From: Bacteroidales bacterium
GTDB lineage: Bacteria; Bacteroidota; Bacteroidia; Bacteroidales; CAIWKO01
Direction: 5' to 3'
NCBI GenBank assembly: GCA_035389045.1
Contig: DAOORA010000024.1
Span: 1-54,632, forward strand
Length of the DNA: 54,632 bases
Below are positions 32,281-36,393 of this stretch, piece by piece (position 1 is the stretch's first letter; each line of letters opens with the position of its first letter). Under the pieces are notes generated by a model. The model worked only from the letters and a program-made list of their open reading frames with translations. It did no database searches and was not told where the DNA came from. Position numbers and translations under genes: made by a program.

Positions 32281-33048
32281 TTAGTAGCTTTTTACCTCAT
32301 ACTTTTCTGCACACACCTTCGCTTTTAAAAATTGCCGGTTCAGTCGTGCGATGTTGGTCACCTTGATTTCCTTAGGACATTCGGCCTCACAGGCGTATGT
32401 GTTGCTGCAGTTTCCAAATCCCAGCTCATCCATAATGGCCACCATTTTCTGAACACGGTCGGCGGCTTCAATTTTTCCCTGGGGCAATAACGCAAACTGA
32501 GAAACTTTTGCGCCTACGAACAACATAGCCGACGCATTGGCACAGGCCGCCACACAGGCGCCACAACCAATACAGGCTGCGGCATCCATGGCAAGTTCCG
32601 CTTTGATCTTTGGTATGGGAATGGCGTTGGCATCAGGAATACCTCCGGTATTTACCGAAACATAACCTCCTGCCTGAATGATCAGATCAAGAGCCGAGCG
32701 GTCGACGACCAGGTCTTTTACGATCGGGAAAGGCTTTGCGCGCCAGGGTTCTATCACTATGGTATCCCCGTCGCTGAACGAGCGCATATGCAGCTGGCAT
32801 GTGGTAATACCGCGTTTAGGACCGTGCGGCCTGCCGTTGATATACAAACTGCATGTTCCGCAGATCCCTTCACGGCAGTCGTGATCAAATGCTACGGGGT
32901 CATTGCCATTCTCAATGATTTGTTGATTAAGGGTGTCGAGCATTTCAAAAAAAGAACTGTCGGGAGAAACTCCTGTAACTTTATAGGTTTCAAATGTCCC
33001 CTTTGTTTGGGCATTTGCCTGACGCCAGATTTTTAAGGTTAGGTCCAT
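32281..33048 (-). CDS. sdhB: Succinate dehydrogenase/fumarate reductase Fe-S subunit
   Basis: [38 protein letters not shown]. Confidence 0.98.
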
Positions 33049-33063
33049 AATTTTAGTTTATTT

Positions 33064-33091
33064 ATCAGCCAAAAGCCATCAGCCATCAGCC
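33064..33091. repeat. Heptamer tandem array, 4 units (ATCAGCC/AAAAGCC; GGCTGAT on the mRNA strand)
   Basis: ATCAGCC AAAAGCC ATCAGCC ATCAGCC read directly. Confidence 0.9.
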
Positions 33092-33104
33092 ATTATTTTT
33101 CATA

Positions 33105-33470
33105 TTATTGATTACTGTCCAATTTATTTATTAAAGAGTTAATCATTTTCGATAGTGATGATATTTTATTGAAAATATCTTCACAATTTTCTTTTAAATA
33201 TCCAACTTTATTTGCAATAATTAATTCTGTTTCCAACTCATACAGGGATCCTCTGGCTTGTTTCAAAAATAAAGAATATGATTTCGTTGAATTCCTACCC
33301 CATCCTTCTGTAATATTTATTGGCACTGAACTGGATGCACTTCTTACCTGAGCTGTAATTCTATGACGTTCTTCCACCGGAAAATCCTTACTCAATTTAT
33401 AAATATCAACAGTCAGTTCAATGCCAAGCTGCCATATTTTTAAATCTTTGTACGAATTTATATTTCCCAT
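33105..33470 (-). CDS. Four-helix-bundle protein (23S rRNA IVP-like / Avd-like fold)
   Basis: SYKDLKIWQ..L...IY.L...FP.EE....Q....SV..NI.EGWGR.S.K....FL..ARGSLYELETEL family pattern; start ATG 33470. Confidence 0.92.
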   Translation of the reverse strand: MGNINSYKDLKIWQLGIELTVDIYKLSKDFPVEERHRITAQVRSASSSVPINITEGWGRNSTKSYSLFLKQARGSLYELETELIIANKVGYLKENCEDIFNKISSLSKMINSLINKLDSNQ

Positions 33471-33523
33471 ATTGTTTTTAAGGCTCAAATATATTTTATA
33501 ATGTCTTATTTATCGGTGCTCAT

Positions 33524-33565
33524 GACTATTGGCTATTGGCTATTGGCTATTGGCTATTGGCTATT
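33524..33565. repeat. Heptamer tandem array (GGCTATT)5 + GACTATT (AATAGCC on the mRNA strand)
   Basis: Five perfect copies at 33531-33565; the outermost contains the sdhA TAG stop. Confidence 0.95.
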
Positions 33566-35501
33566 TATAACTCCTCTGCGATGGTTTTGCAACCTCAAAA
33601 GTAAGTTCTTCCTTGTGCAATTCAGGTTCTGTACCTTCGCCTTTATATTCCCATGCCGACACAAATGTAAAGTTCTCATCATCACGTTTTGCTTCGCCTT
33701 CTTCGGTTTGCATTTCCTCGCGGAAGTGTCCTCCGCATGATTCTCGGCGCTGCAGGGCATCTTTCATGATCAGTTCACCCAGTTCGATAAAATCAGCTAC
33801 CCTGCTTGCTTTTTCGATTTCAGGATTAAAATCATTCAGTTCACCGGGGATGAACAGGTCGTTCCAGAATTCTTTTTTAATTTCGGGTATCATGGCCAGG
33901 CCTGCCTTCAGCCTTTCCTCTGTGCGTCCCATGCCACAGTGCTCCCACATCAGTTTTCCGAATTTCTTATGAATAGAATCAACCGATTGTTTGCCTTTGA
34001 TATTTTTCAGCATTTCGAGCTGCATTTTAATATCATTTTCAGCCTGTACAAATTCAGGGGCATCGGTCGGTATCCTCTTGGTATGTATTTCGGCTGACAA
34101 ATAATTCCCGATGGTATAAGGCAGAATAAAATAGCCGTCGGCGAGGCCCTGCATCAGTGCTGATGCGCCAAGCCGGTTAGCTCCGTGATCGGAGAAATTA
34201 CATTCACCAATGGCATAAAGGCCCGGAACTGTTGTCATCAGGTCATAATCAACCCAGAGTCCACCCATGGTATAATGTATGGCCGGATAGATCATCATAG
34301 GGGTTTCATAAGGGTTTTCATCAATAATCTGTTCGTACATCTGGAAGAGATTACCATAACGCTCTTCGATAACATTTTTTCCAAGCCGTGCTATAGAGTC
34401 TTTGAAATCGAGGTAAACCGCCAGGCCGGTACGGCCAACACCAAAACCGGCATCGCAGCGTTCTTTGGCGGCACGTGATGCCACATCGCGGGGTACGAGG
34501 TTTCCGAAAGCAGGATATCTTCTTTCGAGGTAATAATCACGGTCTTCTTCTGAAATATCGGAAGGTTTTATTTCTTTTTTGCGGAGTTTTTCAGCATCTT
34601 CTTTCTTTTTTGGCACCCATATCCTGCCGTCGTTACGCAAGCTTTCACTCATCAGGGTAAGTTTCGACTGGAAATCCCCGTGCACAGGGATACATGTCGG
34701 GTGTATCTGTGTAAAACAGGGATTGCTGAAGAATGCGCCTTTTTTATAAGCTCTCCATACAGGAGTGGCATTGGATCCCATAGCATTGGTTGACAGGAAA
34801 TAGGTATTGCCATAGCCGCCGGTTGCCAGCACAACGGCATGTCCGAAATATTTTTCTATTTCTCCGGTTACTAAGTTCCTGACAATGATACCGCGTGCTT
34901 TGCCGTCAATAAGGACTATATCAAGCATATCGCGGCGGTTGTAAAGTTTAACGGTGCCTTTTTTTATCTGGCGGCTCAGGGCGCCGTATGCGCCAAGCAA
35001 CAACTGCTGGCCGGTTTGTCCGCGTGCATAAAAAGTACGTGATACCTGGGCGCCGCCAAACGAACGGTTGTCAAGCAATCCGCCATAATCCCGGGCAAAA
35101 GGCACGCCCTGTGCCACACACTGGTCGATGATGGCATTGCTGACTTCGGCAAGACGGTATACATTGGCCTCGCGAGCACGATAATCGCCGCCTTTTATCG
35201 TATCGTAAAACAAACGGTAAACGCTGTCGCCGTCGTTCTGATAATTCTTTGCTGCGTTGATCCCGCCCTGTGCGGCGATACTATGCGCACGACGGGGACT
35301 GTCCTGATAACAAAACACTTTCACATTATATCCCAACTCGCCCAGAGATGCGGCAGCCGAAGCTCCGGCAAGGCCGGTACCCACTATAATAATATCAAGT
35401 TTACGTTTGTTGTTGGGATTGACTAATTTACAGGTTGATTTATAATTTGTCCATTTTTCAGCTAAGGGACCTTCAGGAATTTTTGAGTTTATTTTTGTCA
35501 T
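33561..35501 (-). CDS. sdhA: Succinate dehydrogenase/fumarate reductase flavoprotein
   Basis: [21 protein letters not shown] (FAD-His), [26 protein letters not shown]. Confidence 0.99.
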
Positions 35502-35574
35502 AGCTGCCGGGGGATTTAATTTTGATTTTAAAATACTAAGATCTTTATATGTAAAAAATTTATACTAACAAATT

Positions 35575-36237
35575 TTAACTGTAGAAAAACATGAAATAAA
35601 CCGGGATCAGCGAAAAACCACCTGCGACCACAATGGCATAAATCAAACTGACGGCTTTTATGGCCTGGTTATATTTACTATGATTCAGCCCTAAAGTCTG
35701 ACAACCGGATAGTATGGCGTGATTTAGATGAAAGCCGAGAAAAATAAAAAAGGCAATGTACAAAAATGAATAAACTTTATTCTGAAATAACAGGATCGCC
35801 ATTTGGTAAAAATCATGAGTGTCCATTCCTGCAGGTGGTTGTACTATACCTGCTTTAATGAAAAAGAAATGCATAAAATGAAGGATCAGAAAGATGAAAA
35901 TAATTGCTCCCGTATATATCATATACTTTGAGAAAAACTCAGTATGTGATTTATTGACAACATGATAACGTACAGGACGGGAAGCCCAGTTTTTCAATGT
36001 AATGATAATGCCTATAATTATATGAATTATGAATCCTCCAAATAACACATACTCAAATATTTTAATGAAAATATTGGTAGTCATAAAATTTGAAGCGGCT
36101 GTAAATATTTTTCCGTCGTCGCCGGCCAGCATGGTAAGATTAATGGTAAGATGCACCAGTAAAAACAATGCCAGGAAAAGTCCGAAGGCGCCCATAACAA
36201 TCTTCTTGGTAATGGATGAATACATTAATTTGCTCAT
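35575..36237 (-). CDS. sdhC: Succinate dehydrogenase cytochrome b subunit (5-TM type)
   Basis: SSITKKIVMG..GLFL..FL.VHL; four TM His; TATCTTTG promoter at 36316-36323. Confidence 0.95.
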   Translation of the reverse strand: MSKLMYSSITKKIVMGAFGLFLALFLLVHLTINLTMLAGDDGKIFTAASNFMTTNIFIKIFEYVLFGGFIIHIIIGIIITLKNWASRPVRYHVVNKSHTEFFSKYMIYTGAIIFIFLILHFMHFFFIKAGIVQPPAGMDTHDFYQMAILLFQNKVYSFLYIAFFIFLGFHLNHAILSGCQTLGLNHSKYNQAIKAVSLIYAIVVAGGFSLIPVYFMFFYS

Positions 36238-36393
36238 AATAGTTGATTTTTCAAAAAAAACTAAAAAATTCCGTTAAATTTATAAAAAATTTTTTTCTTT
36301 GTACTTTATCTATGACAAAGATAAAAGTAGAATTTATTTTTCCAAATAAAAAAGTAAATTTTTTTTTAAAATATAATAATTTAAGCAAATAAT

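Follow-up and report, generated by a model that had tools for sequence, protein, structure and literature searches.

A four-helix-bundle gene between sdhA and sdhB of a Bacteroidales genome, bounded by complementary heptamer arrays: a candidate intervening-sequence cassette

Introduction

Between sdhA and sdhB of a Bacteroidales sdhCAB operon lies a small gene with a tandem heptamer array on either side, the units of one array being able to pair with those of the other. What is this insert, and what might its arrays do? The original prediction was that gene and arrays together form an intervening-sequence cassette acting at the level of the mRNA. We studied the locus in the window, by which we mean the whole 54.6-kb stretch of DNA that was analysed, and compared it with loci of the same protein family in other genomes.

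Intervening sequences (IVSs) of rRNA have been known since about 1990. The IVS of Coxiella burnetii is described, in the sections of PMC4990558 available, as 428-444 nt long; its stem measures 28 bp, and 2-3 tandem heptamers precede an S23p ORF that is decaying and probably untranslated. RNase III cuts this IVS in vitro, its ends have been mapped and its heptamer copy number varies between strains (same sections of PMC4990558). Leptospira, Brucella and Xanthomonas-type S23p are cited there as further ORF-bearing 23S rRNA IVSs. The available text of PMC10053308 states that PF05635 'resembles the Avd protein' and reports 2GSC and 4DWL as aligned, whilst the available part of PMC3936711 records 23S_rRNA_IVP genes inside cas operons, for example between cmr3 and cmr2, and reads them as CRISPR-Cas-linked.

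Tandem repeats of the heptamer TAACTGA have been described in Bacteroidetes, Cyanobacteria and Beggiatoaceae by MacGregor 2015 (PMC4679880), which, in the text available, also cites 'long simple sequence repeats' as a related class. The terms 'intervening', 'four helix' and 'S23' are not found in that available text. In the literature surveyed, some of it as partial texts, no paper was found that makes a general connection between heptamer arrays on the flanks and this protein family; the Coxiella note is a local one.

Results

The cassette fills the sdhA-sdhB spacer

The features of the locus are given below, starting from the first gene of the operon.

35575-36237, minus strand: sdhC, cytochrome b558 subunit, first gene of the host operon (TIGR02046, E 2.7e-54)
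33561-35501, minus strand: sdhA/frdA, flavoprotein subunit (NF005749, 1185 bits; ORF list)
33524-33565, minus strand: 5' arm, five AATAGCC units and one AATAGTC (sequence; TRF; predicted to pair with the 3' arm)
33471-33523, minus strand: leader, 53 nt, AT-rich, from the 5' arm to the ATG; carries GATAAATAA at 33506-33514
33105-33470, minus strand: four-helix-bundle (23S rRNA IVS protein/Avd-like) gene, 121 aa plus stop (PF05635, TIGR02436)
33064-33091, minus strand: 3' arm, units GGCTGAT, GGCTGAT, GGCTTTT and GGCTGAT (sequence; TRF; predicted to pair with the 5' arm)
33049-33063, minus strand: spacer, 15 nt, from the 3' arm to the sdhB start; overlapped by the second GATAAATAA copy (33058-33066)
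32281-33048, minus strand: sdhB/frdB, iron-sulfur subunit (NF005746, 427.8 bits; ORF list)

The sequence agrees with the predicted layout, in which an AT-rich four-helix-bundle ORF (33105-33470) lies between sdhA and sdhB with a heptamer array on each side. The cassette, of about 508 bp, takes up the whole of the 512-nt sdhA-sdhB spacer and runs in the same direction as sdhCAB. The sdhA TAG stop (33561-33563) falls within the first AATAGCC unit of the 5' array; the 3' array starts 13 nt past the stop of the four-helix-bundle ORF and ends 15 nt upstream of the sdhB ATG (33046-33048). TRF placed the 5' array at 33526-33565 (period 7, 5.7 copies, 100% matches) and the 3' array at 33064-33093 (period 7, 4.3 copies). 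These two were the only period-7 arrays amongst its 35 rows for the window. A Rfam scan of 32800-33800 gave no family matches, the cassette sitting between sdhA and sdhB and not in an rRNA helix.

A 9-mer, GATAAATAA, had also been noted after each array. It is exact at both sites but its 5'-side copy is not kept in three orthologous cassettes, and we therefore give it no weight as a functional element. It occurs 181 times on the two strands of the 4.46-Mb genome.

The encoded protein is a conserved member of the IVS protein family

The 121-aa protein matched PF05635 over the full profile (positions 1-106 of 106; 110.6 bits, cut-off 33.8; E 5.4e-32) and TIGR02436 at 107.5 bits (cut-off 24; E 3.9e-31). 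Together with the anatomy of the locus, these profile matches confirm the prediction of a self-contained cassette that belongs to the 23S-rRNA-IVS protein family and has complementary heptamer arrays at its two ends. Residues 8-117 also matched, by sequence, Xanthomonas Xcc0516 (PDB 2GSC; E 2.7e-20), which is a pentamer of four-helix bundles as cited in the available sections of PMC4990558. The family motif given in the available part of PMC3936711 is GxxRxxxSxxxNxxE. Its S-x3-N-x2-E core is present (S48, N52 and E55, invariant or nearly so in a 21-sequence alignment), and the spacing of the upstream G and R of the printed motif fits inexactly. The ATG start is common to the orthologues and, judging by a dN/dS of 0.04-0.19 among them, the cassette protein is under purifying selection. 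A suspected connection of the family with HEPN was not found among the papers listed and was dropped.

The arms are predicted to pair

When the two arrays are set unit against unit, six of the seven positions can pair, as predicted, with five Watson-Crick pairs, one U.G and one A.A. Each unit of the predicted stem thus carries a mismatch. Folding of the minus strand of 33040-33580 with RNAfold placed the arrays in paired regions of both the MFE and the centroid structure, again as anticipated, at -120.5 kcal/mol (z -3.95; equalled by 0/100 shuffles). The isolated arms gave -39.3 kcal/mol in sense and -36.5 kcal/mol in antisense, a difference of 2.8, and none of 500 shuffled 3' arms matched the sense value. 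As DNA hairpins, the two strands were alike at -18.7 and -18.6 kcal/mol.

Complementarity was also scored by aligning the 200 nt of upstream flank locally with the reverse complement of the downstream flank (+1 per match, -1 per mismatch of any kind). The sdh cassette scored 18. Random 366-nt intervals of the same genome reached at least 18 in 3/1494 cases and at least 15 in 18/1494, and intervals with AT-rich flanks reached at least 18 in 10/600. On the folding models, we consider it fairly likely that the stem forms in the sdh operon RNA.

The sdhA-sdhB site is occupied in some relatives and empty in others

In related genomes, 29 of the 30 loci allowed both the end of sdhA and the start of sdhB to be located. 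The cassette was present in four of the 13 same-genus loci (our own, L012, L013 and L018) and in none of the 16 outside the genus. The search for empty alleles at the same site succeeded in three same-genus genomes (L011, L014 and L017), with spacers of 26-33 nt and a TAA stop. In a tree built from 1350 nt of sdhA and sdhB, the four carriers and two empty genomes formed one clade (99/99), and the empty L014 was sister to the occupied L018 (99/98). At least two events are thus needed, either gain and loss or allele exchange. Identities along the sequence, compared to see whether the empty L014 allele arose by recombination, were too noisy at about 80% to choose between these, with only sdhB 1-150 leaning to L011. 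It is solely this presence and absence at the sdh site that suggests the cassette may be mobile. Unrelated gene-less arrays were found in the sdhA-sdhB spacer of L015/16/19/22, L021 and L023, and a gene-less complementary array pair lies at sdhA-sdhB in L038, which belongs to another family.

As had been proposed, orthologues show co-variation of the units in their arms. Our genome and L018 have AATAGCC as the 5' unit, L013 has ATTAGCC and L012 has ATTGGCC, the 3' units of the carriers are GGCTGAT, GGCTTAT or GGCCATT, and L012 shows a double change from A-U to G-C across the arms. On the evidence of these sequences, the arms are constrained to remain complementary. In folds of the four orthologues, the arms were paired in the MFE of three sense and four antisense strands; the L012 5' arm has two units only, and its arms are unpaired in the sense MFE. 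The leader is not conserved between orthologous cassettes, and the L013 gene copy is truncated at 102 codons.

The layout is general in the family and extends to rRNA

The host genome has nine family genes, and the family was also detected in Bacteroides thetaiotaomicron, which served as a control. Six of the nine have flanking arrays that seem complementary by eye, with a unit that differs per locus, whilst the paralogue C49 has an identical 8-mer in direct orientation on both sides, with which no pairing in sense RNA is possible.

The wider sample took in 41 genomes of the same order and 121 family loci, 112 of these loci with both flanks at least 100 nt long. Locus counts from these related genomes are not independent and ORF calls were crude. 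Own flanks scored at least 15, an arbitrary threshold calibrated against control intervals and swaps, in 76/112 loci and at least 18 in 64/112. Swaps that matched an upstream flank to the downstream flank of an unrelated locus reached the same scores in only 138/3000 and 43/3000 cases. The arms of one locus thus match each other and not a common motif. Homologues of the gene had been expected to carry complementary arrays on their flanks, and this locus-specific match (76/112 own flanks versus 138/3000 swapped and 18/1494 random) bears the expectation out.

Arrays lay on both sides at 77 of the 121 loci, on one side at 37 and on neither at seven. The best array per flank had a period of 7 in 79, of 8 in 44 and of 14 in 12 of the 191 array-bearing flanks. 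Over the 76 loci with complementary arms, the typical cassette has a median length of 532 nt (IQR 485-582) and arms of 39 nt that are 82% Watson-Crick. Complementary arms were missing at threshold 15 from 36/112 loci, 32 of which also had no direct arrays; direct arrays occurred in 19/112, some loci having both kinds. Five complete genomes from other families of the order scored at least 15 in 16/30 loci.

A tblastn search found 44 named plasmid records, mostly of Cyanobacteria, of which eight stretches were examined. Complementary arrays were present in seven of the eight, from Cyanobacteriota, Flavobacteriales, Gemmatimonadota and Alphaproteobacteria (Geminocystis, Stanieria, Anabaena sp. 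90, Pseudanabaena, Riemerella, Gemmatirosa and Azospirillum lipoferum 4B). The array-flanked gene lies between cas6 and cas4 in Anabaena sp. 90 and Pseudanabaena, and the Riemerella cassette lies between a Fe-S assembly gene and sufB. One locus of a relative sits between two tRNA genes. On AZO_p2 of Azospirillum lipoferum 4B, the insert interrupts an LSU rRNA gene whose Rfam match spans it (RF02541, 614.5 bits), and it is a true 23S IVS, with arms of GAGGACG/GAGGACA-type heptamers. The proposed kinship with rRNA IVSs thus extends to the design itself, heptamer-array arms being found in a genuine member of that class. The sdh feature is very probably an IVS-type cassette, a typical member of a class found inside and outside rRNA.

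Transcription of the cassette

No terminator-like or promoter-like site stood above chance in 32900-33700 (sigma-70-type scan). TAnnTTTG, which we take to be the Bacteroidetes-type promoter motif, lies about 20 nt before the cassette ATG and is missing at the matching place in three orthologues. With the scan at chance and this motif absent from the orthologues, an internal cassette promoter was rejected. With neither a terminator nor a promoter prominent within it, the cassette is most likely transcribed with the operon. An RNase III gene was found in the host genome.

In metatranscriptome X1, contigs that agreed letter for letter with the window fell on sdhB, on sdhA and on the cassette ORF (33310-33495), and none bridged an array. 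One X1 piece had been assigned to 33526-33565; it really comes from the array at C19:2931, where its loose ends match. A contig of X2 that skips 506 positions was considered as a re-joined RNA and rejected, as it has 24 other letters between and 63 mismatches in 827. It is from a relative with an empty site, like L014.

The arms at RNA level or DNA level

The wobble pair in each sdh unit is U.G on the transcribed strand and A.C on the other, and this had been read as a sign of selection at RNA level. The reading fails on a larger sample. Across the 76 loci with complementary arms, the sense strand has 140 G.U against 156 A.C (with 429 transversions), so that the strand-biased G.U pairs expected in the arms of homologues are not seen. 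Locus by locus, G.U exceeded A.C in 25, the reverse held in 26 and 25 were tied. Optimised duplex energy was better on the sense strand in 18/34 loci and on the antisense strand in 16/34, and antisense folds paired the arms no worse than sense folds. With no strand preference in wobble or energy, complementarity by itself does not discriminate between RNA and DNA, and it is equally compatible with a DNA-level role.

The arms could thus be terminal inverted repeats, or hairpin or cruciform ends, of a mobile or excisable DNA cassette. Recombination or replication slippage on the arms would then insert or delete the gene, and the RNA stem would be a by-product. Symmetry between strands in wobble, duplex energy and DNA hairpin energy fits such ends, as does an occupancy of the sdh site that is not single-clade, with the empty L014 sister to L018. 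The gene-less arrays at that site in L021, L023 and L038 point the same way, and the unit family of the sdh cassette itself recurs in the host genome at C19:2931-3028, where it forms an array, and at C14:78978-79085, where it forms a hairpin with no gene. The polarity of the arms is also fixed, as for oriented ends, the 5' arm having more G than C in 65/76 loci.

Other observations argue against DNA ends. The cassette contains no transposase or recombinase, its sole ORF being that of the 121-aa PF05635 protein. Recent copies are absent: only 2 of 118 within-genome paralogue pairs reach at least 60% identity, with a top value of 76%, and with paralogues of such age nothing points to recent transposition. 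Nor is a target-site duplication clear, as ATAAATA[AG] stands at both borders in only two of the four orthologues (L010 and L018) and is of low complexity, with ATAAATA found once per ~1.5 kb. Finally, family genes were co-directional with both neighbours in 21/30 loci and opposite to both in 3/30 (from crude ORF calls, with some loci orthologous), and such co-orientation with host operons would be superfluous for a DNA-only element. On balance, we find it rather unlikely that the arms are primarily DNA ends.

Dispersed arrays and the link between protein and repeat

The host genome has 64 clean 7/8-mer arrays, 11 of them within 700 nt of the nine family genes and 53 elsewhere. In 28 of these 53 dispersed arrays the unit is at most one mismatch from a flank unit of the genome's own family genes, whilst letter-shuffled units averaged 4.6 dispersed matches and never exceeded 13 (300 shuffles). 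The other 25 match no family gene's flanks. With re-called flank units, own-genome matches were 25/53 for the host genome (G000) and 14/25 for G040, and units of other genomes gave 0 to 11/53.

The arrays may on this evidence be binding sites, in RNA or DNA, of the encoded protein, serving autoregulation or propagation in the manner of RAYT/REP. The dispersed arrays favour this, both in the excess of cognate units over shuffled ones and in their closer match to flank units of their own genome than to those of others. Each locus has a unit of its own, and there are cases in which proteins at seemingly different sites are related and their units are too (L052/L074, of one genome and 76% identical; the L129/L140/L141/L147 group). 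The family proteins are mostly basic (median pI 8.76, n = 116), and their homology to Avd is in print (PMC10053308, in the text available).

Identical correlations are, however, predicted by simple co-inheritance of gene and arms, and 25 of the 53 dispersed arrays have no cognate gene. The link is also weak at genome level. Repeat density was compared in 100-kb samples, taken at arbitrary coordinates, from 12 gene-bearing and 12 gene-free genomes. The gene-free genomes had two arrays in 1.14 Mb, one each in two of the 12, and the gene-bearing genomes had 38 in 1.2 Mb, confined to four of the 12 and with 25 of the 38 in one genome (Spearman 0.35, p 0.09 for gene family against repeat density). 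A clean link between gene and repeat density in a first 4-versus-4 sample was thus not upheld at 12 versus 12, and the genome-wide link of the gene family with dispersed repeats is weak. The REP/RAYT-like pairing of protein and repeat that the cognate dispersed arrays suggest is weakened by this larger sample, and we regard binding sites as an unlikely primary role of the arrays.

Chance, in the form of slippage-prone repeats of an AT-rich, repeat-rich genome lying beside a small gene, is highly improbable: 53/64 clean arrays do lie away from family genes and unrelated arrays do occur in the sdhA-sdhB spacer of other species, but 11 of the 64 lie within 700 nt of the nine family genes, complementarity is locus-specific in far more loci than under swapping or at random, and rRNA and other phyla contain cassettes of this design.

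Discussion

We prefer an RNase III stem over DNA ends or protein-binding sites as the account of the arms, and the three readings are not exclusive. The best explanation as a whole would be a cassette of IVS design whose arms form an RNase III stem in the operon RNA, to which, arguing in part by analogy, we give a probability of about 0.5. The arms would pair in the operon RNA as a stem of ~24-31 bp that loops out the gene, so that ~15 nt and the base of the stem would separate the stop of sdhA from the start of sdhB. As in rRNA IVSs, by analogy, this stem would be a substrate of host RNase III and the insert would be cut out of the transcript or insulated within it. Such processing would account for tolerance of the insert inside essential operons and rRNA. 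A role in RNA is favoured by the presence of the design in rRNA, where removal of IVSs by RNase III is established, by the RNase III gene of this genome, by the lack of terminator-like or promoter-like sites above chance in the spacer, and by the co-orientation of family genes with both neighbours (21/30 loci, against 3/30 opposite to both). That RNase III does cut the cassette stem is a possibility that we put forward tentatively. Arrays, unlike unique inverted repeats, would stay pairable in any register after gain or loss of whole units. The protein may act on the arms or RNA of its own cassette as a nucleic-acid-binding oligomer similar to Avd. Counting against the RNase III stem are the symmetry between strands in wobble and duplex energy, the 36/112 loci with no complementary arms at threshold 15, the direct 8-mers of C49, the unpaired arms in the sense MFE of L012 and the mismatch in each unit; cleavage by RNase III would also separate sdhA from sdhB mRNA.

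Amongst the closest known systems is the Coxiella IVS, which, as described in the available sections of PMC4990558, has the same protein family in the loop, stem arms of ~28 bp and tandem heptamers by the ORF. The sizes are also alike, with 428-444 nt in Coxiella, 508 nt here and a median of 532 nt over 76 loci. The two differ in that the host transcript here is the sdhCAB mRNA operon and not rRNA, and in that the arms here are entire arrays with one mismatch per unit. Our ORF is also under purifying selection, unlike the decaying ORF of Coxiella, and RNase III excision, which in Coxiella is known in vitro from the sections available, is here proposed by analogy. With Avd of diversity-generating retroelements (BPP-1 Avd, PDB 4DWL), the cassette protein, which matches 2GSC, shares a homologous four-helix-bundle fold. 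Unlike Avd, it has no reverse transcriptase, template or variable repeat nearby, its neighbours being sdhA and sdhB.

RAYT transposase genes sit among REP sequences, and MITEs offer a related comparison. Like REP/RAYT, the cassette has a gene flanked by an inverted short repeat that is also dispersed (28/53 cognate arrays). It differs from both REP/RAYT and MITEs in having no transposase fold, tandem arrays in place of a fixed palindrome, and old paralogues, and from REP/RAYT in that dispersal of the unit was seen in just four of the 12 sampled carrier genomes.

The repeats of PMC4679880 resemble those studied here in being intergenic tandem 7-mers, often just 5' of start codons, in the same phyla and of variable copy number. 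That paper, in the text available, treats direct repeats of a single unit, whereas here the units differ per locus, pair as complements and enclose a gene. Flanking repeats are not mentioned in the available part of PMC3936711; if the genes in cas operons are cassettes of the present kind, they would be insertions.

A wider proposal, which we offer as speculation and think improbable in full, is that the four-helix-bundle proteins are partners, in a sequence-specific way, of short tandem repeats, every paralogue recognising a 7-8-base unit of its own and contributing to its upkeep or spread. On this view the cassette would represent a widespread element in its autonomous form, and the heptamer repeats known from Bacteroidota and Cyanobacteria would be arrays and hairpins of that element without the gene. 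The element would survive in rRNA, tRNA clusters and essential operons because its arms allow host RNA to be processed around it.

If true, this would join three strands: an orphan protein family that the annotation of thousands of genomes names just 'four helix bundle protein', the IVSs of rRNA, and the heptamers of Bacteroidota and Cyanobacteria. The annotation of operons would also be affected, as family genes in cas loci have been taken for CRISPR-associated. The cassette is small and self-contained, and the idea is thus open to direct testing. If the arms do direct RNA processing, then sdhCAB, suf and cas operons and tRNA clusters would hold an intron-like insert that is tolerated via RNA cleavage instead of splicing.

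Base polarity of the array arms

Among the 112 loci of the 23S rRNA intervening-sequence protein family (PF05635/TIGR02436) from 41 same-order genomes, 76 carry complementary arms, and in 65 of these G exceeded C in the 5' arm. The bias persisted when counted per protein cluster (39/45; binomial p about 1e-7). The G/C polarity of an inverted repeat is the same on both strands, and it is therefore a marker of the hairpin and not of gene direction. The sdh cassette, which lies between sdhA and sdhB, belongs to the minority type with a C-rich 5' arm, as do two of its three orthologues (L013 and L018).

Arrays elsewhere in the source genome

The source genome (G000; C numbers denote contigs) holds a paralogue flanked by direct arrays, together with arrays placed around other ORFs or palindromes:

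C49:31041-31755, family gene L001 with flanking arrays
C9:32629-34187, complementary heptamer arrays, AGTCGGA-type and TGACTTC-type
C22:47250-48250, 134-aa ORF with 8-mer hairpins
C10:92400-93076, C70:22459-23098, C45:9871-10405 and C1:33250-33800, GGGAGTC/GGGAGTT-type arrays

Long arrays of one 8-mer, AACAGCCT, lie on both sides of L001 in direct orientation. No pairing between them is possible on the sense RNA, whilst the antisense strand can pair via G.U (pairing energy -81.9 antisense vs -13.6 kcal/mol sense). The same 8-mer also makes 11 dispersed arrays in this genome.

In place of a four-helix-bundle gene, the C9 heptamer arrays enclose an ORF of 433 aa, encoded at 32692-33993 on the opposite strand. 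On C22, a hairpin of CCTATGTG / CACATAGA 8-mer arrays stands both before and after the 134-aa ORF, the upstream hairpin module being present in duplicate. The long GGGAGTC/GGGAGTT-type arrays on C10, C70, C45 and C1 are each split by a CCCGATAGCTATCGGG-type palindrome. Arrays of this type also form contig ends (C31, C56, C59 and C121), indicating that the assembly was broken by arrays.

Genomic settings of cassettes and arrays

The sdhA-sdhB spacers of other species contained unrelated gene-less arrays (L015, L016, L019, L021, L022, L023 and L038). In L023 and L021 the array units begin at the sdhA stop codon, and the L038 spacer carries a complementary pair, GCTxTTA / AAAAGCT, without a gene. 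The sdhA-sdhB spacer appears to be an array hot spot. Two further repeats near sdhC were detected in the window by TRF:

36316-36376, 25-27-nt unit, 2 copies, upstream of sdhC
35533-35575, 14-nt AT-rich unit, 3 copies, sdhC-sdhA interval

Cassettes and family genes also occur in other settings. In genome G027, a cassette with complementary CAATGAT/CAATGAA-type arrays (L060, contig C126) is flanked by one tRNA gene on each side. Six family genes lie inside 24 kb of the complete genome G053 (C1:938389-962472). In Anabaena sp. 90 pANA02 (L191) and Pseudanabaena galeata pPg_01 (L193), a family gene with arrays is placed between cas6 and cas4, a position that fits insertion into an operon better than a CRISPR function.
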